Below are positions 4,208 through 30,887 of a stretch of 51,041 nucleotides of DNA, one piece after another (the stretch's first letter is position 1; each line of letters opens with the position of its first letter). The notes below the pieces were generated by a model. It searched no databases. It was given only the letters and a program-made list of their open reading frames with translations, and had not been told where the DNA came from. The DNA is taken from positions 203-51,243 of the forward strand of contig DJGU01000092.1 in NCBI GenBank assembly GCA_002432795.1, given 5' to 3'. The translations under genes and the position numbers were made by a program. This DNA comes from Anaerolineaceae bacterium UBA5838. Its GTDB lineage: Bacteria; Chloroflexota; Anaerolineae; Anaerolineales; Anaerolineaceae.

Positions 4208-6907
4208 GTGAAAAAGACAGCCGAACAACTACGACTTGAAGAGTATCACACCCGGAAAAAGAATTGGAAAAGATGGGGTCCCTACCTGAGCGAACGCGCC
4301 TGGGGTACAGTGCGTGAGGATTATAGCAAAACAGGAACCCCCTGGGAATATTTTCCGCATGATCATGCCCGCAGTCGTGCATACCGTTGGAATGAAGATG
4401 GTTTGGCTGGGATCAGTGATCGTTTTCAGTATCTTTGTTTTGCTCTGGCGCTGTGGAATGGAAAGGATCCCATTTTGAAAGAGCGCCTATTTGGATTGAA
4501 CGGATCCGAGGGAAATCATGGTGAGGATGTAAAAGAATATTACTACTATCTCGATAACACTCCCACGCACAGTTACATGAAGTATTTGTATAAGTGCCCC
4601 CAGAATACTTTCCCTTATGACAATTTGGTCAACACAAACCGCGAACGATACAAACAAGGCGAAGAATTCGAATTGGTTGATACAGGGATATTTGATCAGA
4701 AGAAATATTTTGACATTACGGTCGAGTATGCCAAGATCAACGAAAATGACATCCTTATCAGGATTAGTGCGGTCAATAATGGGCCTGAGCCTGCAGACCT
4801 TCATCTTCTTCCCACCTTATGGTACCGCAACACCTGGAGTTGTGGGTATGACTCCGGACCAATGGGGGATGTGGCTGAAAGACCGCTTCTTACCCAATTA
4901 AATAATTCAGGAAAAGAAGCGATAATCCAGGCTGAGCATCCGGTGTTGGGCGAATATTGGTTTTATGCGGAGGGTGTTTCGGACTTTCTTTTTACTGAGA
5001 ATGAGACCAATCAGCAGCGATTGTTTGGCTTGGCAAATGACAATCCTTACAAGAAAGATTCCTTTCATCGCTACCTGGTCGATGGTGAGTTGGAGTCTGT
5101 GAATCCAGAAAAGAGAGGTACCAAGGCTGCCGCATATTACCAGTTAACTCTGCAACCAGGAGAAACGAAAACCATTCGTATGCGTCTCTCAGACCACATC
5201 GTCCAGAAACCTTTTTATCAATTTGACAGGAATTTTAGTGCTCGAAAAGTTGATGCTGATAAATTCTATGAAACGTTTCAATCATCCACCATATCTGCGG
5301 ACAGGCAAAACATTCAACGCCAAGCGTATGCGGGTGTGTTGTGGAACAAACAACTCTACTACTATGATATTGAACAATGGCTGAAGGGCGATCCGTCATT
5401 TCCGATAGATTCTCCAAACCGGAAAAAAGGTCGTAACCATGAATGGATACATCTGAATAATTTTGACATTCTTTCCATGCCGGATAAATGGGAATACCCC
5501 TGGTATGCTGCCTGGGATTTGGCTTTTCACGCACTTCCACTAGCGCAAATTGATGCCGACTTTGCCAAACGGCAACTCATTCTGATGACACGCGAATGGT
5601 ATATGCACCCCAATGGGCAACTACCCGCCTACGAATGGTCTTTTGGCGATGTTAACCCTCCCGTACACGCCTGGGCTGCCTGGCGTGTTTACCAGATCGA
5701 CGGTGAACGGTCCGGCAATTATGACTGCAGTTTTTTGGAAAGCGTATTTCAAAAATTGCTTTTGAATTTTACCTGGTGGACGAATCGGAAAGATGCAGAT
5801 GGCAACAATATTTTCCAGGGTGGTTTCCTTGGATTAGATAATATCAGTCTGTTCGATCGAAGCGCGCAATTGCCTACCGGCGGTCACATAGACCAGTCAG
5901 ACGGAACGACATGGATGGCATTTTACAGTCTTGGCATGCTCGAAATAGCGCTTGAGCTGGCAAAGACAAACCCTGTCTACCAGGATCTGGCCTCTAAATT
6001 TTACGAACACTTTTTGGGGATTGCCACGGCGATGACAGATTGCGGTGGGCAGGGGCACTGCCTTTGGAATGAAGATGACAATTTCTTTTATGATGTTTTA
6101 CACCTTCCAGATGACAGCATTATCCCGCTAAAAGTGCGGTCACTGGTCGGACTCATGCCAATTTTGGCAGTGGACATCCTTGAGCCGGAAATTCTGGAAC
6201 AAATGCCGGATTTCACGCGCAGAATGCGTTGGTTTACAGAACAAAGACCTCACTTAAGCGGAAATATGGCGAGCGTTGAAGTTGAAGGGGTTGGGCAGCG
6301 CCATATTGTATCGTTATTAACAAAAGAGCGTCTTCTTTCAATTTTACGCCTCATGCTCGATCCAAATGAATTTCTTTCCGAGTTTGGGATCAGATCACTT
6401 TCCAGGTACCACCTGGAAAATCCGTATTCAGTTAATATTGCCGGCAAGGTCTTTAGTATTAACTATCAACCGGGTGAATCCGAAGACGGTATGTTTGGCG
6501 GAAATTCGAATTGGCGGGGTCCAATCTGGTTTCCAATCAATTATCTGATCATTGAATCTTTAAAAAAGTTCCATCAGTATTACGGCGATGATCTTCAAGT
6601 GGAATGTCCTACAGGCTCAGGTATTTTTATGAACTTAGAGCAAGTAGCGGATAATCTTGCTGGGCGATTAATCAAGATATTCGAACCAGACAGTTCTGGA
6701 AGGCGGCCCGTATTTGGAAATTCACAAATATTTCAGGAAGACCCTCTATGGCGTGAACACATCCTGTTCTATGAGTACTTTCACGGTGAAACAGGCGCGG
6801 GCTTGGGTGCCAGCCACCAAACCGGATGGACGGGATTGGTTGCGAACCTCATCCAACAAGTAGAAGAGACTCGTGCGGCGAAAAACTCAAACACAACGGT
6901 CAGGTGA
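4208..6907 (+). CDS. GH63-like / MGH1-like (alpha/alpha)6 glucosidase family protein
   Basis: 899-aa ORF with a GTG start preceded by AGGAGAG. Its size, the WEYPWYAAWD segment and the C-terminal FYEYFHGETGAGLGASHQTGWTGLVANL resemble bacterial GH63-type glucosidases. This is family recognition from memory, not a search. Confidence 0.7.
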   Translation: MKKTAEQLRLEEYHTRKKNWKRWGPYLSERAWGTVREDYSKTGTPWEYFPHDHARSRAYRWNEDGLAGISDRFQYLCFALALWNGKDPILKERLFGLNGSEGNHGEDVKEYYYYLDNTPTHSYMKYLYKCPQNTFPYDNLVNTNRERYKQGEEFELVDTGIFDQKKYFDITVEYAKINENDILIRISAVNNGPEPADLHLLPTLWYRNTWSCGYDSGPMGDVAERPLLTQLNNSGKEAIIQAEHPVLGEYWFYAEGVSDFLFTENETNQQRLFGLANDNPYKKDSFHRYLVDGELESVNPEKRGTKAAAYYQLTLQPGETKTIRMRLSDHIVQKPFYQFDRNFSARKVDADKFYETFQSSTISADRQNIQRQAYAGVLWNKQLYYYDIEQWLKGDPSFPIDSPNRKKGRNHEWIHLNNFDILSMPDKWEYPWYAAWDLAFHALPLAQIDADFAKRQLILMTREWYMHPNGQLPAYEWSFGDVNPPVHAWAAWRVYQIDGERSGNYDCSFLESVFQKLLLNFTWWTNRKDADGNNIFQGGFLGLDNISLFDRSAQLPTGGHIDQSDGTTWMAFYSLGMLEIALELAKTNPVYQDLASKFYEHFLGIATAMTDCGGQGHCLWNEDDNFFYDVLHLPDDSIIPLKVRSLVGLMPILAVDILEPEILEQMPDFTRRMRWFTEQRPHLSGNMASVEVEGVGQRHIVSLLTKERLLSILRLMLDPNEFLSEFGIRSLSRYHLENPYSVNIAGKVFSINYQPGESEDGMFGGNSNWRGPIWFPINYLIIESLKKFHQYYGDDLQVECPTGSGIFMNLEQVADNLAGRLIKIFEPDSSGRRPVFGNSQIFQEDPLWREHILFYEYFHGETGAGLGASHQTGWTGLVANLIQQVEETRAAKNSNTTVR

Positions 6908-6910
6908 ACA

Positions 6911-7648
6911 ATGGACTTTCCAATTTTAAAAAGTGCTCCTCCACATGTTGACACCCCTCAAATGATCGAAGTTGATCGCCTGATGGTTGAGGAATATTAC
7001 ATCGATCTTGTGCAAATGATGGAAAATGCCGGGCGTAACCTGGCAAGGCTGGCAGTAAACCGTTTTCTACAGAACGGAGCGAACCTTGTGGTAATCATGG
7101 CAGGAACAGGAGGGAACGGAGGGGGTGCCATGGTTGCCGCGCGTCATTTACATAATTGGGGAAAAAGCGTGAGAGTCATTCTCACCCGCTCTCAACAATT
7201 GTTTAAGGGCGTTCCCGCGCATCAGGTAGAGATATTACAGAATATGCGCGTCACTACCTCCACGTTTACCGATACACGGGATATCCCTGTCCCAGATTTG
7301 ATTATCGATGGGTTGATCGGATACAGCCTGAAGGGTTCGCCTTCTGGAAAGGCGGCTGAACTCATACGATGGGCAAACCTCCAAAAAGTGCCTGTGCTTT
7401 CTTTGGATATTCCCTCAGGATTGGATGCCTCCACCGGTATTGCTCATGAGCCAGTAATCAATGCGAATGCTACTATGACCCTTGCACTTCCAAAGAAAGG
7501 GTTCCTGACACCTGGTGCAAAATCACTTATCGGAGAACTATATCTTGCAGATATTGGTGTTCCTCCAGAGCTATACGCGAAACCTTCGTTAAACCTTGAT
7601 ATGGAGCCATTGTTTTCTTCTGGTGAAATTCTTCGGTTAGCGTTGTAG
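6911..7648 (+). CDS. NAD(P)H-hydrate epimerase (YjeF N-terminal domain only)
   Basis: IMAGTGGNGGGAMVAARHL and DGLIGYSLKG are typical of the YjeF_N family. Starts 3 nt after the GH63 stop. Confidence 0.75.
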   Translation: MDFPILKSAPPHVDTPQMIEVDRLMVEEYYIDLVQMMENAGRNLARLAVNRFLQNGANLVVIMAGTGGNGGGAMVAARHLHNWGKSVRVILTRSQQLFKGVPAHQVEILQNMRVTTSTFTDTRDIPVPDLIIDGLIGYSLKGSPSGKAAELIRWANLQKVPVLSLDIPSGLDASTGIAHEPVINANATMTLALPKKGFLTPGAKSLIGELYLADIGVPPELYAKPSLNLDMEPLFSSGEILRLAL

Positions 7649-13365: not shown

Positions 13366-14115
13366 TTATGCAACTATTTGTTGCTCTGTCATCATATTAT
13401 TGATTACTTGAGGGAGTAGTCTGGCATCGTGCACAACCCAACGCTCATTCAATAGCACATTCTTTTTGAATGACGCATCTGTTAGTTGTGTTGTCACAGC
13501 AATAACTTGCATCCCGGCAGATAATGCTGCCCTTACGCCGCTGGGGGAATCCTCGATCACTAAGGTTTCGTTTGGCGCCACTCCTAACCTATTTGAAACC
13601 AGCGCGTAGATCTCTGGGTCGGGTTTTCCATTTTCAACGTCATCGCGGCTGGCAACAAAATCGAACGAATCGCGTAGATCCAAAGCATCCAGAATGCGAT
13701 TGACCTGAGGGCAGTAAGACATCGTGGCTAATCCGATACGGCAGCCTGTTCGTCGAACCTCATCGAGCAAGGTCATATTATGCGGCCAGATGTTCTCGCG
13801 GATGACTTGTGGATCGATGATTAACTGCTCGTAATATTTCAGCCTGATTTGTACAAACGCCTGCCAGGGGGACGAAACACCAAACTCAGGCATTCGAGCA
13901 CGCGCAGCATCCTCGAGTTCAAATTTCTCCAATAAACCTCGTGAGACTTCTGCCCGTGATAAACCCACCAATTCTTTATATGCCTCAAAAACGGTCTCCT
14001 CTTTGATGAGGTTTGGACTTAATTCTTGTAGAGCGTGAGCATAAGAATGTGCTTTTAACCTTTCTGTTTGAACGAGGGTACCATCCAGGTCAAAAATGAC
14101 GGCTCGTATGGTCAT
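13366..14115 (-). CDS. HAD-superfamily hydrolase (beta-phosphoglucomutase-like subfamily IA)
   Basis: Motif I VIFDLDGTLV, then GKPDPEIY, then motif IV VIEDSPSGVRAA. Confidence 0.8.
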   Translation of the reverse strand: MTIRAVIFDLDGTLVQTERLKAHSYAHALQELSPNLIKEETVFEAYKELVGLSRAEVSRGLLEKFELEDAARARMPEFGVSSPWQAFVQIRLKYYEQLIIDPQVIRENIWPHNMTLLDEVRRTGCRIGLATMSYCPQVNRILDALDLRDSFDFVASRDDVENGKPDPEIYALVSNRLGVAPNETLVIEDSPSGVRAALSAGMQVIAVTTQLTDASFKKNVLLNERWVVHDARLLPQVINNMMTEQQIVA

Positions 14116-14184: not shown

Positions 14185-14934
14185 TTAACTTCTTTCCCTG
14201 ATCAACTTAGCCGCGCTTGAATCAACATGCCAGATAATATTTCCTTGAGCCGGCTGGATCCTTTGAACTGGAATATTCTCCGGGTCAAGATGGTCTGATA
14301 ATGCGATTTGGAGCATTCTTGCTTTGGCTTCACCCACAATCAGAAAGATTACATTTCTGGAAGCGTTGAAAACCATCGGTGTAAGCGTGACCCGCGCTGC
14401 CGGGCGGTCTTGACACGATGCATTAACCTGTATGACCGGGCTCACATCCTCACCTGGGCTAATTCTGCCTGGAAACAGCGAGGCTGTATGACCATCTTCA
14501 CCCATCCCCATCAGCGCGATATCAAAAACCGGCCAGGGGGTTTTGCCCTTGGCAAAATTCGAAAGGACATGAATATAGTCTGACACTGCATCCTGAGGGC
14601 TAAGTTCCCCTTTAATCCTGTGGATATTTTCAGCACTTGCAGGAATCTTACTCAGAAAATTGTCAAATGCTTGTCTATAATTGCTGTCCGAATACTCTGG
14701 GGGAACACAGCGCTCATCTCCCCAGAAAAAATGGACCTCACTCCAGGGAACAGAATAATGGCTTTGGTTTTGAGCAAGTGCCTCATACACACCAATCGGA
14801 GAAGAACCGCCAGAAAGCCCGATATTTGCAGTTCCGCGCAGATGTACAGCCTGTGTGAGGATCTCAGCAATGCTTTCAGAAGCAGCATTGTTAAGGTCTT
14901 CAACACTATTATGAATCCATACCGTTTTTTCCAT
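14185..14934 (-). CDS. pgl: 6-phosphogluconolactonase
   Basis: GLSGGSSP, FFWGDERCVP, GMGEDGHTASLFPG. Confidence 0.85.
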   Translation of the reverse strand: MEKTVWIHNSVEDLNNAASESIAEILTQAVHLRGTANIGLSGGSSPIGVYEALAQNQSHYSVPWSEVHFFWGDERCVPPEYSDSNYRQAFDNFLSKIPASAENIHRIKGELSPQDAVSDYIHVLSNFAKGKTPWPVFDIALMGMGEDGHTASLFPGRISPGEDVSPVIQVNASCQDRPAARVTLTPMVFNASRNVIFLIVGEAKARMLQIALSDHLDPENIPVQRIQPAQGNIIWHVDSSAAKLIRERS

Positions 14935-14986
14935 CTTATTTTCTTACTCCCGATTGAAGCGAGTCGCCCAAATCAACTTAAGATTC

Positions 14987-15082
14987 TTAATCAATCAAAC
15001 AGGCAAGTCCACAATCAACATAGACGACACCTAAAGCAGTTTTTGTTCCACCAACGTCACCAATAGGGTTACATTTTCCCAT
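14987..15082 (-). pseudogene. 31-codon remnant of an ASKHA sugar-kinase (glucokinase-like) N-terminus, with an intact Shine-Dalgarno and ATG
   Basis: MGKCNPIGDVGGTKTALGVVYVDCGLACLID carries the phosphate-1 motif GDxGGTKT..L..V of glucokinase-type kinases. AGGAG lies 5 nt upstream of the ATG. A stop follows after 31 codons, and only ~50 nt remain before pgl. Confidence 0.4.
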
Positions 15083-15251
15083 AGTTACTCCTATAAGATA
15101 AAATACTTGTATGACCTGCACGTATCCCGACGTGGTAAGGTTGGGTTTAATTACTTCGTTGAGTCTGTAAGAAATCTTCATCCGGAAGCATCCAACAAAA
15201 AATCCAGACGCAAGCGGAGAACTATAACCAAAGCGTATGAGGAGAAAAGTA

Positions 15252-16709
15252 ATGTCTGAATCAACCACAATTATCATTTTTGGAGTCTCTGGTGATCTTG
15301 CCCAGCGCAAATTAATTCCCGGATTATTTAACTTGTTTCAGAAGAAAAAGCTTGAAAGTAATTTTAGAATTGTCGGGCTGGCTGGACGCCCTTGGCAAGA
15401 TGAAGATCTTCGCGCCACCGCAAGGAAATCGATAGACTCCTTTGCCGGGTTCAAGGTAGAAAATGATAAATGGAATGAATTTGCTGGAAAACTATTTTAT
15501 ATTTCCGGAGATTTCCGCAATGAACAATCCTATAATACGCTGTCAGAGAAGCTGGAGTTTTTGGAAAAAGGAGCTGCAAACAGATTGTATTACCTCGCGA
15601 CTCCGCCAGATTTCTTTATCGATATCATTGAAAACCTTGGGAAAACGAATCAGGTTGATGAGTTGGAAGGCTGGAGAAGGGTAGTTATCGAAAAACCTTT
15701 CGGGACTGATTATGAATCAGCAAAGAAACTCAACTCCGAGATTCACAAGGTTCTTAACGAGGAACAGATCTACCGCATTGACCATTACTTGGGAAAAGAA
15801 ACTGTTCAAAATATCTTGGTAGCTCGATTTGCAAACACAATTTTTGAACCGATTTGGAACCGCAACTATATTGACAATGTTCAAATAACTGTCGCTGAAA
15901 AAGTTGGTTTGGAACGCCGCGCAAAATACTACGATAAAGTAGGTGTTGTTCGGGATATGTTCCAAAATCATTTACTCCAGTTGCTTTCTTTAATTGCTAT
16001 GGAACCCACAGCTTCTTACAAGGCTAATGACCTGCGTGATGAAAAAGTTAAAGTTATCAAATCCATCAGGAGAATTCCTTTTGAAAAAGTAGAAAGCGAA
16101 GCGGTTCGGGGTCAATACCGCGGCTATAGCCAAGAAGAAGGCGTATCGGAAGGAACACAAACGCCCACCTTTGCAGCGATTCGTTTCTATATCGACAATT
16201 GGCGCTGGCAGGGAGTTCCATTTTACCTTCGCTCCGGGAAAAGGATGCCTGAAAAAGTAAGTGAAATTGTCATCCAGTTCAAGAAACCACCCCATCTCAT
16301 GTTTCCGTTGCCTGAAGAGTATGAATTCTCAGCCAATCGTCTTACCCTTTGCCTGCAACCTGATGAAGGAATTCACCTGAAGTTTGAGACGAAAGTTCCG
16401 GACACGATTGCTGAAACCCGGTCGGTGGATCTTGAGTATCATTATCGGGATGTGTTTGGCAAAGATGCCATTCCTGAAGCCTACGAAAGGTTATTGTTGG
16501 ATGCGATTACCGGAGATGCATCATTATTTACCCGTGGGGATCGTAGTGAACTGGCCTGGGAATTAATTGATCCGATCCTTCAAGCATGGGAAAGCCCGAA
16601 CGCTCCACCTTTGCCCATATATGAACAGGGAAGCTGGGGTCCCATTGAGGCAGATATGCTGCTAGCAGGGGATTCTCTCAAATGGCAGCGTGGATGTGGA
16701 AATCATTGA
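15252..16709 (+). CDS. zwf: Glucose-6-phosphate 1-dehydrogenase
   Basis: IIFGVSGDLAQRKL, RIDHYLGKE, RDMFQNHLLQLL. The start is set at the ATG at 15252, preceded by GAGGAG. The track start at 15237 is the alternative. Confidence 0.9.
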   Translation: MSESTTIIIFGVSGDLAQRKLIPGLFNLFQKKKLESNFRIVGLAGRPWQDEDLRATARKSIDSFAGFKVENDKWNEFAGKLFYISGDFRNEQSYNTLSEKLEFLEKGAANRLYYLATPPDFFIDIIENLGKTNQVDELEGWRRVVIEKPFGTDYESAKKLNSEIHKVLNEEQIYRIDHYLGKETVQNILVARFANTIFEPIWNRNYIDNVQITVAEKVGLERRAKYYDKVGVVRDMFQNHLLQLLSLIAMEPTASYKANDLRDEKVKVIKSIRRIPFEKVESEAVRGQYRGYSQEEGVSEGTQTPTFAAIRFYIDNWRWQGVPFYLRSGKRMPEKVSEIVIQFKKPPHLMFPLPEEYEFSANRLTLCLQPDEGIHLKFETKVPDTIAETRSVDLEYHYRDVFGKDAIPEAYERLLLDAITGDASLFTRGDRSELAWELIDPILQAWESPNAPPLPIYEQGSWGPIEADMLLAGDSLKWQRGCGNH

Positions 16710-16723
16710 TAAAGGAAATCGAT

Positions 16724-17431
16724 ATGCCTGATCACACGGAAATAGATTTATATAACTACGACGAATTCGTTCCTGAAAAATTTGAGCGTTGGATGAGATT
16801 TGACGATAGCCCACCGGTGGGAAAACTGGTGCCGGATTTTCCCTTATGGAATTTGGATCGATCCACAACCAGTTTGAAAACTGAAATCACTAAACATGCC
16901 TACACCATAGTCGAGTTTGGTAGTTTTACCTGACCATACTGCGGGCTGGCGTGCCCAGCCATGAATAAAGTTGCTGTGGATTTCGAAAACAGTGACATTG
17001 GATCGGTTTTTATCTATACCCATGAAGCCCATCCAGGCGAAAACTATCCCCATTTAACGAGTATGGATCAAAAGTTCCGTCACGCCGAGGCACTTCGTGA
17101 TGTTTATGGTGTTACACGGCGGATACTTCTGGACGCTTTGAATGGTGCGTGCCACAGGCACTTTGGTTCCATGCCAAACATGACCTGGATATTCAACCGC
17201 TCCGGGATACCTGTTTATAAATCCGATTGGTCAGATTCCCACAGCGTGAGGAACGCCCTGGAGTATTATCTGGAAATCCCCAATCGCAGAAAAGCCGGCG
17301 AGCGATTGGCTCCATTCCATGTGGAGCGCCTTGATTATCGCAACCAGGAAAGGGAGTTATTTTACGAGTCTCTGGAAAGGAATGGACCAAAGGCCGTCGC
17401 GGAGTTTCAAAAAGCTTTTCCATCAGGTTGA
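16724..17431 (+). CDS. Deiodinase-like thioredoxin-fold selenoprotein; UGA at 16931-16933 read as selenocysteine
   Basis: Track ORFs 16682-16933 and 16961-17431 are in the same frame, separated by TGA plus 9 sense codons. The joined sequence TIVEFGSFT-U-PYC...VFIYTHEAHPGENYP fits the FGSxT-[U/C]-P ... Y.xEAHP pattern of the iodothyronine-deiodinase-like family. A hairpin follows the UGA. The start is placed at ATG 16724, after AAGGAAA. Confidence 0.75.
16944..16960 (+). promoter_or_regulatory. Candidate bacterial SECIS hairpin for the UGA at 16931
   Basis: GGCTGG-CGTGC-CCAGCC is a 6-bp GC-rich stem with a 5-nt loop containing GU. It starts after a 10-nt spacer from the UGA. A possible 3-bp lower stem pairs CAT (16935-16937) with ATG (16961-16963). 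Confidence 0.55.
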
Positions 17432-17488
17432 TAGAGTTCTATTGATAAACTTGGGATTTGGAGTACCTAATACCTGTATAATTGAAGA

Positions 17489-17833
17489 ATGGTGGTACGC
17501 AGCGATTCCGGTTGGATAAACCTGATTAATTGCGAGCGTACATTGAGCAATCCCGTTTTTGCTGAGCTGTATGAGCTAATAGTTTCACTGTTGCCTGTTG
17601 GAGTAAAAGACAGCCGCTTTGAGTTTTGTGAGCAGGTAGAAGAACAAATAAAGGGAGTTGCAAACTTTACACTTGAATATGTTAGCGAGAATTTGCAAAA
17701 ATATGATGGGGGTACACCATTTTTAAAATGGGTATTGAATATTGCGGTACGGCAGTTGTTATACGAATTACGAGTTGAAAAATGGAAAATTGACTCAAAG
17801 GAGGAAGGCTTCCCACAAGTACCTGAAGAATGA
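17489..17833 (+). CDS. ECF-type sigma-70 factor, sigma2 (region 2) portion; ends at an in-frame TGA in the inter-domain linker
   Basis: TPFLKWVLNIAVRQLLYELRVEKW aligns with FTTWVYTIAVRFALTEIRRAKW of the intact paralogue at 30252-30887. Confidence 0.6.
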   Translation: MVVRSDSGWINLINCERTLSNPVFAELYELIVSLLPVGVKDSRFEFCEQVEEQIKGVANFTLEYVSENLQKYDGGTPFLKWVLNIAVRQLLYELRVEKWKIDSKEEGFPQVPEE

Positions 17834-17836
17834 CGC

Positions 17837-18082
17837 ATGATACTTTCTGAAAATGAGTTTTTGCAATTTACCCACAACTTGTTCAAACAAGAGCTTTCAG
17901 AGAGTCAACGAATCGCAATTCGCTCGATGGTGATGTTCAGAATGCCAAAAGAAGAGGTAATGCGATTATTACTGATGGAGCGTTGTGATTATTTTAAAAT
18001 GATCCATGATGCGCGCCTGAGAATTAAGCGGCGTTTACAAAATGATAGCGTCGTTGTTACAGAACAGCTGACAGACCTGTAG
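17837..18082 (+). CDS. ECF-type sigma-70 factor, sigma4 (region 4 HTH) portion; same frame as 17489-17833, ATG 3 nt after the TGA
   Basis: LSESQRIAIRSMVMFRMPKEEVMRLLLMERCDYFKMIHDARLRIKRRL aligns with LTEKQRTALMAVAIHGIPLAEVARSMNTERNALYKLLHDARLKLKRHM of the paralogue. Confidence 0.55.
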   Translation: MILSENEFLQFTHNLFKQELSESQRIAIRSMVMFRMPKEEVMRLLLMERCDYFKMIHDARLRIKRRLQNDSVVVTEQLTDL

Positions 18083-18123: not shown

Positions 18124-19089
18124 ATGGACAAAAATCAAAAGGTGGAAAACCTCGAAGAATTTAAAGCCTCCTTTTCCTATGGAAAGAGGTCAGACTTAAA
18201 TTTTAAATTCCTCAAGGATTTGTCATCAGAAGAAGTTGGCTCTTTTTTTTCAGACTTATTCGGAAAAATCGGGGAAACACTAAATGATGGAAATATCAAC
18301 CGCTTAGTGAATCAAGTTATTGAGTGGCAAACAAGTGTCTATTCAAAACCAGGAAGGTATCTTTATGCTGATGTCCCATTTTCTCCATTACAGAAACCCC
18401 TTTCCCAGTCTCGATTGGCATTATTAACTTCCAGCGGTCACTTTGTGGCAGGGGATGACCCAAATCCTCTTGGCGTGGAGAACATGACTCAGACCGAAGC
18501 TGAGTTGAGAATTTCTGAGTTTTTAAGGGCGGTTCCACAGCTTTCGGAAGTCCCAATTGACACACCAGAAGATTCTTTGCGGGTCAGACACGGCGGCTAT
18601 GATATTAGTGGAGCCGTGAAAGATCCCAATGTCAATTTTCCAATAACGCGTTTACGAGAGATGCAGTCTAATGGCATGATCGGAGATCTATTCCCGATTG
18701 CGTTTTCCTTTGTTGGCGCTTGCTCGCAGTTGCAGTTGACAAAGAGATCAGGTCCAGCATGGGTGAAAAAATTCAAGTCCCTGGGTATCGAGGGAATGAT
18801 CCTGGTTCCAGTCTGACCAGTCTGTCATGTGTCCGTGGGACACATTGCGCGTATGCTTGAAGAAAGCGGGATATCCACTGTGGTAGTTTGTTCAGAAATA
18901 TTTCGTGAAAAAATGCTGGCCATGAACTTGCCTCGCATCCTTTTTACCCATACCCCTTTAGGTCGACCTTTAGGTGCTCCAGGGAATAAAGCCACCCAAA
19001 CAGATATTTTAGTATCAGCACTTGAATTGCTTGAATCCGCTCAAAGGGGAGGTAGCGTGGTAGACAGCCTTGCTTCGTATTTCCGGTAA
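18124..19089 (+). CDS. Glycine/sarcosine/betaine/D-proline reductase selenoprotein B (GrdB) family protein; UGA at 18814-18816 read as selenocysteine
   Basis: Track ORFs 18124-18816 and 18829-19089 are in the same frame, separated by TGA plus 4 sense codons. The joined sequence is GIEGMILVPV-U-PVCHVSVGHIARMLEESGISTVVV...PRILFTHTPLGRPLGAPGN. The upstream RVRHGGYD..DPNVNFP fits my recollection of the GRDB family. A hairpin follows the UGA. Confidence 0.75.
18827..18845 (+). promoter_or_regulatory. Candidate bacterial SECIS hairpin for the UGA at 18814
   Basis: ATGTGTCC-GTG-GGACACAT gives an 8-bp stem with a 3-nt loop, or a 7-bp stem with loop CGUGG. It starts after a 10-nt spacer from the UGA, the same spacing as at 16931. 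Confidence 0.55.
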
Positions 19090-19447
19090 GTAGATTAATT
19101 TCGTAGGAATATCGTCAGCTTTCACAGTTAACAATAGACAGTAAAGTAAATAAACCGGGGGTTGACCTTTTTGGCAGCAGTTGTTCCAGGTATTGTATCC
19201 ACGCTAGTTTTCAGGGTGGTTTTGCTTTTAGCCCCCCAGATGGAAATGCTGAAAATAGATATGGGATCCCTTCCAGCAAGTAAGGACAAGAAGGAAGGCA
19301 AGCCATTATTCGGATGGCTGGAACATCTCATGATTGGTATTGTCTTTGCAGACAACCTTTCATTGCAGTGGGGATTTTATGGGGAAAAGGTAAGAAAACA
19401 ACCCGCTTTGCAGTCAATTGACTAATACGAAAACATAAGGAGATGTT

Positions 19448-22811: not shown

Positions 22812-24080
22812 ATGATTATGAGAAAATTAATAGCACTGCTAATTCTTTCTGTTTTTGCATTGTCTGCCTGTACATCGATCGTGCAAACCCAAATAGTCTC
22901 TTCAGAATCGTTTGATATTAATAATTGGGACAGTATTGTTGCTGCCGCCAATGGTCAAACAGTGAACTGGTATATTTGGGGTGGGTCTGAATCAATCAAT
23001 AGCTTCGTCGATAATTTTTATGGAGAAGCGCTTAAGGACCGCTACAATATCACTTTAAATCGCGTTCCAGTCGCAGACACAGTGGATGCAGTCAATCAAG
23101 TCTTGAGCGAAAAGCAAGCGGGAAAGGATCCTGGCGCTGTTGACCTGATCTGGATCAATGGAGAGAATTTTGCCACATTAAAGCAGGCTGATTTGCTCTA
23201 CAGGGATTGGGCAAACAAACTCCCCAACAGTCAATATGTCAACTGGGATAATCCCGCCATAAACCGGGACTTTGGGACTCCGGTAGATTTTCAAGAAAGC
23301 CCATGGTCTTCTGCGCAGTTCCAATTTATCTATGATTCTGCCAGAATGCAGCCGGAGGAATTACCCCGTTCGTATGCTCAACTAAAAAACTGGGCGATCA
23401 AGAATCCGGGACGGTTTACTTATATTGCTCCTGGTCCGGGCGCGTTCCAGGGAACCCGTTTCGTGAAGGGTGCACTATTTGAGATCAGTGGTGGCGCAGA
23501 CCAATGGGCAACCTTCGACCAAACCACCTGGGATAAATGGTCCCCTGAATTGTGGGCATACTTCAATGAAATTAAACCTTATCTATGGCGCCAGGGCGAG
23601 ACTTATCCAAAAGATGAGAATGAGTTACACAGCCTGTTTGCCAACAAAGAAGTCGATTTTAGTATCACCCAGGCAATTGTTGGAGCAGGCGCGTTGGTAG
23701 AACAGGGATTAGTTCCTCAAACATCAAAGGCATTTGTTTTCGAAGACTACATGATTGGTGACTTCAATTATGTGGGAATTCCATCTAACGCTCCCAATAA
23801 AGCGGCAGCTCTTGTGCTGGCTAATTTGATCCTTGAACCAGAATTCCAGGCTGCACAGATCTTACCTGAAAATGGGTTTGGTTTGGGCTTTGGCATTGAT
23901 ATTAATCAGGTTACAGATACTGCGTCCACGACCCTTTTAGCAGACGCGTCCAAAAAACTGGGCGACGCTGCAACATCACCTTCTGATCTGGCGAAATCAT
24001 TGGTTGGTGATTCAGCCGCACAATATCAAAGCCTGATAGAAGAAGGTTGGCGCCAATATGTACTTCTCAATTCGAAATAA
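22812..24080 (+). CDS. ABC transporter substrate-binding lipoprotein (YnjB-like family, substrate unknown)
   Basis: Lipobox LSVFALSAC. VNWYIWGGSESIN...DLIWINGENF resembles YnjB-type binding proteins, recalled from memory. Confidence 0.7.
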   Translation: MIMRKLIALLILSVFALSACTSIVQTQIVSSESFDINNWDSIVAAANGQTVNWYIWGGSESINSFVDNFYGEALKDRYNITLNRVPVADTVDAVNQVLSEKQAGKDPGAVDLIWINGENFATLKQADLLYRDWANKLPNSQYVNWDNPAINRDFGTPVDFQESPWSSAQFQFIYDSARMQPEELPRSYAQLKNWAIKNPGRFTYIAPGPGAFQGTRFVKGALFEISGGADQWATFDQTTWDKWSPELWAYFNEIKPYLWRQGETYPKDENELHSLFANKEVDFSITQAIVGAGALVEQGLVPQTSKAFVFEDYMIGDFNYVGIPSNAPNKAAALVLANLILEPEFQAAQILPENGFGLGFGIDINQVTDTASTTLLADASKKLGDAATSPSDLAKSLVGDSAAQYQSLIEEGWRQYVLLNSK

Positions 24081-24082
24081 GG

Positions 24083-24961
24083 ATGAATAAGCAGTCGAAT
24101 TTTTCTCCTCCATGGCTTAGTCTGGCCCCAGCAATCGCAATAATTGGATTATTGTTTGGGGTCAGCGTGCTTTATGGTTTGGCGCAAAGCTTCGGAATTC
24201 TCACGGGAACTGAACAAGAAGCACTAAACCTGGACGCGTATCGCAATGTATTTGCCGGTCAAGGACCTGCAGGACGGGAGTTCTGGTCTTCCTTCGGCTT
24301 CTCTCTTTGGATTGCCGGGATATCTACTTTTGTGTCTGCAATAGGCGGGTTCTTCGTTGCCGTTTGGCTCAATGGTCGTCGAGGCAGGGGGAGCCGCGGT
24401 GATACTCTCGCATTAAACTGGAATTTAGCATTCCCTCATTTGGTCTGGGCAATCGGTTTGTTGTTGTTTTTTTCACAAAGCGGTTTGCTCGCGCGCATAT
24501 TAGCATCAATGGGTATTATCCAAACGCCGAGCCAATTCCCTGTTCTGGTTCGTGATCGACTTGGAATAGGTATTATTGTCGATTACATATCAAAGGAAAT
24601 CCCATTTCTGGCGTTAATTGTCTTAGCCGTATTGCGTTCTCAGGCAGAAAACTTTGAGGTTGTAGCTGAGAATTTAGGGGCATCGCGTTGGCAGCGCTTG
24701 AGGTATGTCACCATCCCACAGGTCTTGCCATCCTTATTGTCTGGATCGCTGCTGGTATTTGCTTTTGTTTTTAGTGCCTATGAGGTTCCAGCACTTTTAG
24801 GAGTTAGATATCCAAGAATGCTGCCAGTTCTGGCATTGGAGTTTTTCACAAATCCTGATCTGAACAGCCGCGCAGAAGGAATGGTGATCAGCCTGGCTAT
24901 TACCGTGGTGGTGATGATTATCGCTGCGATCAGTATCAAATTTGAAAAGAAGATTGGCTGA
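24083..24961 (+). CDS. ABC transporter permease
   Basis: Six hydrophobic segments and an EAA-like loop (VAENLGASRWQRLRYVTIP). The start is set at ATG 24083, just after the SBP stop; the track ORF begins at 24047 inside the upstream gene. Confidence 0.8.
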   Translation: MNKQSNFSPPWLSLAPAIAIIGLLFGVSVLYGLAQSFGILTGTEQEALNLDAYRNVFAGQGPAGREFWSSFGFSLWIAGISTFVSAIGGFFVAVWLNGRRGRGSRGDTLALNWNLAFPHLVWAIGLLLFFSQSGLLARILASMGIIQTPSQFPVLVRDRLGIGIIVDYISKEIPFLALIVLAVLRSQAENFEVVAENLGASRWQRLRYVTIPQVLPSLLSGSLLVFAFVFSAYEVPALLGVRYPRMLPVLALEFFTNPDLNSRAEGMVISLAITVVVMIIAAISIKFEKKIG

Positions 24962-24964
24962 CGG

Positions 24965-25759
24965 ATGAAGAAGATTCTCAATGCTGCAATCAGGTTTTTT
25001 TTATATCTGGTGTTGATTGCGCCTCTTCTTCTTTTTGGAGTGTATGCCTTCTCTGAACGTTGGTTTTTTCCCGATGTTCTCCCATCAACTTGGTCAACCG
25101 CACCTTTTTTACGTTTATTTTCTGACCCCAAGACTGTCGGAGGGCTGCTCACAAGCATTGGTATTGCGCTGGTGGTAAGTTTGTTCTCCTTGATTGTTGC
25201 TTTTCCAGCTGCACGAACATTGGGATTACGGAGATTTCCCGGTCGTCAATTTGCCTGGTTATTATTCTTCTTGCCCACAGTGGTCCCTCCTTTAGCTGTC
25301 GGTATGGGAATGAATATTTTATTTCTCAGGCTTGATCTGGCGGGATCTTTTGTTGGAGTTATCCTTTCTCATCTTGTGCCCACATTGCCGTATACAATAT
25401 TTACACTCTCCGGTTTGTTTGCTAATTACGATGAAAATTATGAATACCAAGCCATAGTGCTCGGCGCAAGCAAAAGACGGACGTTCTTCAATGTGACATT
25501 ACGTTTGGTCTTTCCAGGATTGATCGTTGCTGGATTGTTTGCATTCTTAATCTCATGGAGTCAGTACCTATTAACATTATTGATAGGCGGCGGGAAGGTT
25601 CTCACGCTTCCTATGCTTCTTTTCTCAGCGGTATCAGGTGGGAATCCGTCAACCATCGCCGCGTTATCTTTGTTGTTTATCGCTCCTCCTGTCTTGGTTA
25701 TCGCATTAACAGCGCGCCAACTCAACCAACACGGAAACGCGATTAAGGAGCAGTACTAA
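24965..25759 (+). CDS. ABC transporter permease
   Basis: Polytopic, with an EAA-like loop (QAIVLGASKRRTFFNVTLRLV). Tightly packed with its neighbours. Confidence 0.8.
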   Translation: MKKILNAAIRFFLYLVLIAPLLLFGVYAFSERWFFPDVLPSTWSTAPFLRLFSDPKTVGGLLTSIGIALVVSLFSLIVAFPAARTLGLRRFPGRQFAWLLFFLPTVVPPLAVGMGMNILFLRLDLAGSFVGVILSHLVPTLPYTIFTLSGLFANYDENYEYQAIVLGASKRRTFFNVTLRLVFPGLIVAGLFAFLISWSQYLLTLLIGGGKVLTLPMLLFSAVSGGNPSTIAALSLLFIAPPVLVIALTARQLNQHGNAIKEQY

Positions 25760-29909: not shown

Positions 29910-30200
29910 TCAGATAGCATGTAATATGCGGGATAATGCTTCATATTCTTCGCGGCAATCCGGGCACATGTCCAAATGATGATGAACTAAGGGGAGCAAA
30001 CTAGCCACATCTTCGCCGCGGATGGCCATTTCAGTATATTGGTCCAACAATCCATGGACATCATCACAGGTCAGCTCAATCTCCTGTGTGTTTTGAATCA
30101 TGTACAGCATTTTTTCGGCTTGATCAGGTGATATATTCAATTCCATCTTATCAAGAGTGGTTTTTCTTCTACGTTGAAAAAGACGCGTAAACAAGTTCAT
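29910..30200 (-). CDS. Zinc-binding anti-sigma factor (ZAS / zf-HC2), soluble, no TM segment
   Basis: LTCDDVH...HHHLDMCPDCREEY contains H-x3-C-x2-C plus an upstream Cys. The start is placed at ATG 30200, with GGAGA 9 nt upstream; the track start 30221 is the alternative. Confidence 0.7.
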   Translation of the reverse strand: MNLFTRLFQRRRKTTLDKMELNISPDQAEKMLYMIQNTQEIELTCDDVHGLLDQYTEMAIRGEDVASLLPLVHHHLDMCPDCREEYEALSRILHAI

Positions 30201-30251
30201 TAAGTTAGATCTCCAATACATTAGATGCAGTTGTTGATTGAAAAATTACTT

Positions 30252-30887
30252 TCATCTCTCAAATATTGCGATTAATTCTTCTGATGACATTCCTTGTTCT
30301 TCCATGTGGCGTTTCAACTTTAACCTGGCATCATGAAGCAATTTGTATAACGCGTTCCTTTCGGTATTCATACTGCGAGCAACTTCCGCTAATGGTATTC
30401 CATGGATTGCCACTGCCATCAAGGCTGTCCGTTGCTTTTCAGTTAATTCCTCGAGCATCACTTTTTGTATCATGGAGATCGTTTCACGTTTTTCAAATGA
30501 CATTTCGACATTAACACCCATATCCGGCATTTCACGAGACTCATCTCCCACATCTTTGCCTTCGAGCATCTGATCAAGCGAGGTCTCCTTCCATTTTGCT
30601 CTTCGAATTTCAGTAAGTGCAAACCGTACAGCAATCGTATAGACCCACGTTGTAAACTGGCTGCGCCCCTCAAAGGAGTCTAAACGCGCCAGTACTCGCA
30701 GAAGAGTTTCCTGCGCGACCTCCTCTACCAATGGAGAAAACCGGGGATCGTCCTGTTGGATCCACTTGGAAAGCGCATAAGGCATACCGTTTATGATAAT
30801 CTTAGATAAGTCAGCAAGTGCAACTTCCCGCTGCTCTCCAGACGACCTAAGGCTTGTCAGCCAATCTTCATTGGTGCGATTTCCCAT
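30252..30887 (-). CDS. ECF-type RNA polymerase sigma-70 factor (intact paralogue of 17489-18082)
   Basis: Region 2 is AQETLLRVLARLDSFEGRSQFTTWVYTIAVRFALTEIRR. The region 4 HTH is IPLAEVARSMNTERNALYKLLHDARLKLKRHM. Confidence 0.85.
   Translation of the reverse strand: MGNRTNEDWLTSLRSSGEQREVALADLSKIIINGMPYALSKWIQQDDPRFSPLVEEVAQETLLRVLARLDSFEGRSQFTTWVYTIAVRFALTEIRRAKWKETSLDQMLEGKDVGDESREMPDMGVNVEMSFEKRETISMIQKVMLEELTEKQRTALMAVAIHGIPLAEVARSMNTERNALYKLLHDARLKLKRHMEEQGMSSEELIAIFER

Follow-up and report, generated by a model that had tools for sequence, protein, structure and literature searches.

In the genome of Anaerolineaceae bacterium UBA5838 (Chloroflexota) we examined a stretch of 51,041 nucleotides (nt) of contig DJGU01000092.1 (assembly GCA_002432795.1; hereafter the window), in which a gene for an alternative sigma factor of the extracytoplasmic function (ECF) type appears to be cut in two by an in-frame TGA. 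The gene starts with an ATG at 17489 and runs to the TGA at 17831-17833, which is followed by CGC (17834-17836) and a second ATG at 17837; it ends with a TAG at 18080-18082, and a single frame is kept throughout. The initial annotation had described two same-frame open reading frames (ORFs) separated by TGA-CGC(-ATG). The sequence and its coordinates confirm this arrangement, and the two ORFs are best read as one ECF-like sigma gene. The features of the gene, together with an intact paralogue in the same window, are:

17489-17833, forward strand: N-terminal ORF of 114 codons plus TGA, predicted to encode the sigma2-like part and the short linker of an ECF-like sigma factor
17831-17833, forward strand: in-frame TGA in place of the ancestral Trp115 codon (TGG), by protein and DNA alignments, with no hairpin downstream
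17837-18082, forward strand: C-terminal ORF of 81 codons plus TAG, predicted to encode the sigma4 helix-turn-helix part; its ATG is new in the window allele
17803-17846, forward strand: 44-nt patch with eight of the nine private nucleotide changes, source of both the stop and the ATG
17477-17482, forward strand: TATAAT box, 6 nt 5' of the sigma ATG, probable -10 element of a leaderless transcript
30252-30887, reverse strand: intact canonical ECF sigma paralogue of 211 amino acids, with Sigma70_r2 and Sigma70_r4_2 domains (TIGR02937 sigma70-ECF, E 1.7e-19)

The interrupted protein itself falls below the cut-offs of the Pfam sigma and NCBIfam families, and its identification as a sigma factor is based on three other observations. 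The fused product aligns by BLASTP with the paralogue from end to end (28% identity, E 8e-23), as had been noted earlier; we add that the paralogue lies on the minus strand. Sigma70_r2 is matched by 12 of 20 members of the divergent family to which the gene belongs. Finally, in a Foldseek comparison of the AlphaFold (AF2) model of an intact orthologue (predicted local distance difference test score 88.5), the best 25 PDB matches consist entirely of sigma factors, 24 being of the ECF type, including sigmaE, SigH, SigL, AlgU, SigW and CnrH, at modest match scores (best E 0.012, template modelling score 0.25-0.37). On these alignments and this model, the gene is predicted to be an ECF (group IV)-type sigma factor with sigma2 and sigma4 domains. 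In the model, residues 104-112 form the inter-domain loop. The next helix spans 113-121, with residue 115 in third place. Since residue 115 lies inside this helix, the predicted position of the break is the boundary between linker and sigma4. The earlier placement in the sigma2-sigma4 linker therefore holds as to the domain boundary, but not as to the middle of the linker.

What stands at residue 115 in other copies of the gene? A search across 5.8 billion proteins returned 26 sigma homologues, almost all of about 197 amino acids and uninterrupted. The closest relatives, to as low as 40-56% identity, have Trp at residue 115: around the UGA column P0001 (93% identity) reads PEEWHAIL and P0002 (56% identity) reads PDDWYPIL, and Trp is also found in P0006, P0010 and P0012. 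Distant homologues carry Met, Leu, Ile or Gln at this residue, and Cys occurs in none of the aligned homologues. In the DNA, contigs L001-L003 have the window's gene order at 97.8-99.0% nucleotide identity over 8-18 kb and an uninterrupted sigma gene of 197 codons with TGG, reading GAA GAA TGG CAC GCG ATC CTT ACT where the window reads GAA GAA TGA CGC ATG ATA CTT TCT. The same gene order, range of identity and intact 197-codon gene with TGG are found in L037-L041. A 90%-identity cluster adds seven further intact variants of 197 amino acids, of which the commonest, P0029, occurs on 11 contigs. The initial annotation had asked whether the TGA is conserved among orthologous loci; what is found there is TGG (Trp115) in most of the same-species contigs found, and never a Cys codon. 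These alignments show the ancestral codon 115 to be TGG. We also note that many distant family members have Met at residue 115, where the window's clade has Trp, and that the 81-amino-acid database protein P0045 begins at the Met of this position; an internal start at the sigma4 boundary is conceivable in such Met115 lineages.

The interrupted allele is, judging from its recovery, real and confined to one clone. The exact products of 114 and 81 amino acids are present in three other assemblies (JGI, Logan, ENA); L005 and L006 are 100% identical to the window, and L004 differs from it by one single-nucleotide polymorphism and one recombined patch over 14 kb. In comparison with all other haplotypes whose DNA was aligned, nine changes are private to the window allele, and the 44 nt of 17803-17846 contain eight of them. 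In the protein and its codons they amount to D105E, a synonymous CCA>CCT, TGG>TGA, CAC>CGC, GCG>ATG, a synonymous ATC>ATA and T120S. When eight sites were placed at random in 594 nt, none of 2,000,000 trials was as compact. Within the patch TGG CAC GCG has become TGA CGC ATG, the ATG costing two of the eight changes; the patch can alternatively be parsed as a compensated frameshift, -2 (GC) and +2 (AT), plus substitutions. The 27-mer of the window allele is CCTGAAGAATGACGCATGATACTTTCT. No second copy of the 44-nt patch with up to 3 mismatches lies in the window, and no local inverted repeat is convincing; ectopic conversion or template switching from within the window was rejected as the source of the patch because no donor copy was found; L032 and L033 were ruled out as donors by DNA alignment. 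That the stop and the restart codon arose together in one compact patch remains an unexplained detail.

Short divergent patches are also seen elsewhere in these genomes. A 220-nt segment of a HAD-hydrolase gene (13853-14074) has 38 differences from the otherwise identical L004 and looks like a short recombination import, and comparable patches occur in the sigma gene at 17667-17770 (allele C) and 17938-18079 (allele E). The N-terminal half of the sigma gene is diverse in general, with pN/pS of about 0.5-0.6 against 0-0.08 for codons 121-197. We considered whether this ratio records decay after the stop and rejected the idea: the N-terminal diversity is standing variation, because intact variants carry the same residues as the window (I31, E51, G56, V57, F60 and G75, with C15 in the intact P0030 and G8 in the intact P0035). 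From residue 121 on, the window protein is identical to the intact alleles, which differ from it only by synonymous changes.

The gene is also interrupted by stops in other contigs. Contig L036 reads GAA GAA TAG CAC GCG, in which a single isolated G>A has turned Trp115 into an amber codon; no start codon follows before codon 131. In allele C (protein P0003 and the four contigs L024, L025, L034 and L035) the sequence AAA TGA GTA ATG replaces the nearly invariant Trp81, inside sigma2, by an opal codon. This stop sits in a divergent recombined patch, and the ATG after it probably pre-existed, because P0002, 56% identical, has WVMK there. The third case is L032, from the sample that also yielded L001; its 66%-identical sigma orthologue (135-737) is stopped at codon 45 by TAA and at codon 59 by TAG. 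The C-terminal half of this orthologue is fully conserved and no TATAAT box precedes the gene, and errors are possible in this single 1-kb contig. In total, one species shows three independent sigma stops, and a sister species contributes a copy with two. By dataset, UGA115 belongs to SRR1050523, ERZ2931043 and JGI 3300013829, TAG115 to ERZ27315058, UGA81 to 3300035338 and 3300005252, and intact sigma genes to ERZ27315071 and ERZ2931072. The coincidence of two hits at codon 115 was tried as a sign of site-specific selection and is not significant (p ~0.19, given that single transitions can produce a stop by 21 routes over 17 codons, 8 of the routes at the four Trp codons). L022 and L023, considered as further interrupted orthologues, were treated as artefacts, the lesions being a run of N and a frameshift at low coverage (2.4 in L023).

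Two further genes adjoin the sigma gene, and both contain an in-frame UGA of their own:

16724-17431, forward strand: redoxin/deiodinase-like gene with UGA at 16931-16933 (FGSFT-U-PYC) and hairpin at 16944-16960; the conserved upstream neighbour
18124-19089, forward strand: GRDB-family (GrdB-like) gene with UGA at 18814-18816 (LVPV-U-PVC) and hairpin at 18823-18849; the downstream neighbour

In both, a perfect G+C-rich hairpin with a stem of 6-8 bp lies 13 nt past the U of the UGA (GGCUGG/CCAGCC in one, and AUGUGUCC-GUG-GGACACAU in the other). L009 and L010, whose sigma proteins are 44-48% identical to the window's, retain the redoxin UGA with its hairpin, as do 12 of 12 same-species copies checked; UGA231 of the GRDB-family gene is present in every in-frame same-species copy examined. 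The assignment of both flanking genes as selenoprotein genes, coding for selenocysteine (Sec), is well supported by these comparisons.

We compiled the lesions of 15 genes at 16 loci. Nine other genes are clean wherever they are covered, and the redoxin gene has only its UGA. L001-L003 share a 1-nt deletion in the GrdB-like gene. The remaining lesions are singletons that may be assembly errors: a DUF1684 frameshift (L040), a stop in a CDP-OH transferase gene (L037) and a GrdB-like frameshift (L024). The sigma/GrdB-like pair thus bears several independent lesions in the window's species. The shared deletion corresponds to window position 18791 (L001 8768-8908), changes ATCGAGGG to ATCG-GGG 24 nt before the Sec-UGA, and leads to a frameshift and a stop in contigs whose sigma gene is intact. 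Three lineages hinted at a reciprocal rule by which either the sigma gene or the GrdB-like gene is broken; it was discarded, as haplotypes with both genes intact are common. In L036 (2480-3600, window 18124-19249) the GrdB-like gene is 86% identical to that of the window, its flanks are 97-98% identical and the Sec-UGA is kept; a whole divergent GrdB-like allele appears to have been swapped in.

How would the interrupted gene be expressed? A TATAAT box 6-7 nt before the sigma ATG is also found in L001, L024, L033, L009, L010 and L017, and a consensus scan for a -35 element upstream of the window's box gave no match. No Shine-Dalgarno sequence is seen at these conserved TATAAT-ATG starts. The sigma mRNA is probably leaderless, because orthologues with as little as about 40% identity keep the box at this distance from the start, and the earlier suggestion of a leaderless transcript gains support from this conservation. 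Leaderless mRNAs are translated by 70S ribosomes, which could reinitiate nearby. The junction TGAcgcATG places a stop and a start a few nucleotides apart on one mRNA, as in translationally coupled genes, and an identical TGA-N3-ATG spacing is found at two native junctions of the window, TGAacaATG at 6905 (between 4208-6907 and 6911-7648) and TGAcggATG at 24959 (between 24047-24961 and 24965-25759). The geometry is the same, but the native junctions part distinct conserved genes, whereas the sigma junction falls within a single ancestral gene. At the native junctions (6905-6913 and 24959-24967), too, no Shine-Dalgarno sequence lies at the usual distance from the ATG.

We consider it probable that 17489-18082 is a young, strain-specific nonsense allele, null or hypomorphic, of a dispensable alternative sigma factor, and one of several parallel alleles of this kind. 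Of the three readings offered by the initial annotation, a recent pseudogene is the best supported, given the intact same-species orthologues with TGG and the clonal distribution of the allele. The disabling change, TGG to TGA, is seen directly against intact same-species alleles with 97.8-99% flanking identity. It had been proposed that uniformly uninterrupted orthologues, together with extra disabling mutations, would mark a pseudogene; the orthologues are indeed mostly uninterrupted, with TGG, but there is no second lesion in the window allele, for which reason we prefer the term loss-of-function or hypomorphic allele. Neither further lesions nor relaxed constraint are found in this young copy. 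Translation of the probably leaderless mRNA would end at 17831-17833 and give a sigma2-only fragment of 114 amino acids; some ribosomes may restart at the AUG at 17837 and make a sigma4 fragment of 81 amino acids, and in a small fraction of cases tRNA-Trp may read the UGA, giving a nearly wild-type protein. The net outcome would presumably be that sigma activity is lost or strongly reduced. Comparison with the other interrupted alleles, which have TAG or TAA, are cut elsewhere or have no restart codon, lends support to neither restart nor Trp readthrough. Several points weigh against a loss-of-function allele. Between the window and L001, codons 121-197 show 0 nonsynonymous and 3 synonymous differences, and no second stop or frameshift is present; the allele is too young for this lack of decay to separate a gene just broken from one still used. 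At least four assemblies contain it, which means that selection against it is not strong. Its junction, moreover, in its resemblance to the native coupled junctions, looks less random than a plain nonsense hit.

As an alternative, the stop and restart may have produced a newly born two-polypeptide sigma factor, a sigma2 chain of 114 and a sigma4 chain of 81 amino acids that would function together on RNA polymerase. The new ATG was born in the same 44-nt patch as the stop; under the indel parse, the second event both restores the sigma4 frame and creates its start; the cut is at a domain boundary, the sigma4 half is unchanged, and 70S ribosomes on a probably leaderless mRNA could reinitiate. 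A natural split sigma factor, SigO-RsoA of Bacillus subtilis, provides a precedent (PMC7826278). In mechanism, then, the stop-restart proposed earlier is plausible, with the geometry of native junctions, and it is in evolution that it finds no support, for the split is not conserved: it is restricted to one clone, and the other haplotypes and species examined have a gene that is fused or broken differently. In L036, where TAG stands at codon 115, the next start comes no earlier than codon 131, and allele C is cut inside sigma2. In the restart fragment, helix 113-121 would be four residues short at its start, and the clustering of changes could equally reflect one complex mutation or a short recombination import like those seen in L004 and in alleles C and E. 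Among 1.84 billion representatives, a profile search revealed no population of stand-alone sigma halves; the short matches that we inspected as candidate stand-alone sigma2 or sigma4 proteins (P0045, P0048 and P0053) are fragments or internal-Met starts at position 115. In SigO-RsoA, as in the split imagined here, sigma2-like and sigma4-like parts are separate polypeptides from adjacent ORFs. The orthologues of the window gene are fused, and its split is a within-species novelty with putative function of the halves. SigO and RsoA, by contrast, are long-established separate genes. We regard a functional two-polypeptide sigma factor as unlikely, and its birth as a SigO-RsoA-like event within a species, by loss of Trp115, a compensating AUG at 17837 and reassembly of the halves on RNA polymerase, as slightly less likely again.

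It is also possible, if rather improbable and a little more so than the split, that the allele is leaky, with the UGA-C read rarely by near-cognate tRNA-Trp so that a little full-length protein with Trp is made and the gene is attenuated, not null. The ancestral residue is Trp, so such readthrough would restore it (junction peptide ...VPEEWRMILSENEF...), and the base after the stop is C, which in E. coli makes the weakest UGA context. There are, on the other side, no stimulatory structure past the stop and the stops TAG and TAA in sister alleles, so that a UGA-specific decoding is not general among the interrupted alleles. Background UGA readthrough with the endogenous tRNA-Trp(CCA) is documented for E. 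coli (PMC13092985). Rfam and tRNA scans of the window gave no matches, and the tRNA-Trp gene lies outside it. In addition, TGA terminates 15 of 54 long ORFs, and UGA is shown to be an ordinary stop in the window's genome. A global reassignment of UGA is rejected on the same count, and no other interrupted gene was found among the stops between long same-frame ORFs. A sequencing or assembly artefact would be in keeping with sources that are metagenome assemblies and with relatives that contain probable errors, such as the frameshift of L023 and the singleton GrdB-like frameshift of L024. The identical junction in the three further independent assemblies named above, and the eight changes involved, which do not resemble a homopolymer slip, make this explanation negligible.

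A tempting alternative is that the UGA at 17831-17833 is read as Sec, which would tie synthesis of the sigma factor to selenium and make it a switch for the neighbouring genes. What speaks for it is solely the position between two genes that have an in-frame UGA and a hairpin. That the sigma gene is sandwiched between selenoprotein genes is true of the window; in L009 and L010 only the redoxin gene adjoins it, and a GrdB-like gene is absent from its side. Correspondingly, the Sec-redoxin gene stands beside the sigma gene in L009, L010 and the window, and the GrdB-like gene adjoins it only in the window's species. No hairpin resembling a Sec insertion sequence (SECIS) follows the sigma UGA, where folding gives an A+U-rich pairing of -7.2 kcal/mol (z -0.07) and no G+C stem at +13; the weak AU-rich pairing that the initial annotation had set against the flanking hairpins is borne out. 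Like bacterial selenoprotein genes, the sigma gene has an in-frame UGA and belongs to an organism in which Sec is evidently used; it departs from them in having no hairpin, no redox motif near the UGA, no Cys or Sec in the column and no conservation of the UGA; neither the column nor a bacterial SECIS thus agrees with a Sec gene. The residue found in orthologues is Trp, Met, Leu, Ile or Gln, most same-species contigs found are without the UGA, and codon 115 is TAG in L036. With Trp as the ancestral residue, no Cys homologue, no hairpin and an amber codon in another strain, we reject, on sequence grounds, Sec recoding and a selenium-dependent switch, to which we give hardly more credence than to an artefact.

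Returning to the young nonsense allele, we asked what kind of sigma factor it affects. The gene appears to be divergent, ECF-like and restricted to Anaerolineae. Its family is small, with 24 representatives at E <= 1e-30 in the profile search, and 10 of its 11 genome matches are metagenome-assembled genomes (MAGs) of Anaerolineae or Chloroflexota, the other being labelled Latescibacterota. It resembles ECF (group IV) factors in its two-domain sigma2 and sigma4 organization, in its homology to the canonical ECF paralogue and in 24 of the 25 fold matches. It differs from them in a very divergent sigma2, the N-terminal part being variable and the C-terminal part unusually conserved across the family, in a TATAAT leaderless-type promoter instead of an ECF-type autoregulated one, and in its neighbourhood. 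The interrupted gene lies beside the redoxin and GRDB-family genes, and no adjacent anti-sigma-like ORF was recognised. An adjacent anti-sigma gene is not present in every ECF group. For the paralogue there is a candidate:

29910-30221, reverse strand: ORF of 103 amino acids downstream of the paralogue, possibly a zinc-type anti-sigma factor (weak RsrA-type match, E 0.005, well below the family cut-off)

Within the window 12 kb separates the two sigma paralogues, which are on opposite strands. In two Anaerolineae MAGs (L022, 1291-2928; L023, 4844-6469) the divergent sigma gene is directly upstream of the canonical ECF paralogue, here of 212 amino acids, and the cluster continues with a Cys-rich anti-sigma-like ORF of about 101 amino acids and a TPR protein.

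A feature peculiar to the window sigma factor, compared with group IV, is its synteny with zwf, pgl, glk, tkt and the Sec-redoxin gene. In relatives the gene follows zwf and the Sec-redoxin gene and lies near pgl, glk, tkt and tal; this pentose-phosphate synteny (zwf, pgl, glk, tkt, tal-pgi) is found in L009, L010, L012 and the window (14185-17431). From the synteny alone, we infer that the sigma factor might have a role in redox or NADPH-related stress.

The closest parallel is rpoS. In natural E. coli, attenuating and premature-stop rpoS alleles segregate and are readily selected (PMC2700278), and the window allele may likewise be one of several parallel nonsense alleles segregating in its species. 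Polymorphism of rpoS is seen in laboratory E. coli as well. Common to both is a dispensable alternative sigma factor with independent stop alleles beside intact ones in one species. The differences are that rpoS encodes a group 2 factor and the window gene a divergent ECF-like one known from sequence alone, and that the window allele has gained a restart codon right after its stop. The event is ordinary in kind, a nonsense polymorphism of an alternative sigma factor, and its setting is unusual.

These findings remove a tempting reading: lying between two selenoprotein genes does not by itself make an in-frame UGA a Sec codon or a selenium switch. They define a small divergent ECF-like family with conserved leaderless-type promoters, oxidative pentose-phosphate synteny and an adjacent Sec-redoxin gene. 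They also show, on metagenome data only, parallel nonsense alleles at a single alternative sigma locus within one uncultured Anaerolineae species, an rpoS-like pattern in a phylum where the evolution of regulators is essentially unstudied. Should the two halves after all work as a split sigma factor, the intact and split alleles that co-exist with about 98-99% identity would offer an unusually clear opportunity to study how split sigma factors originate.

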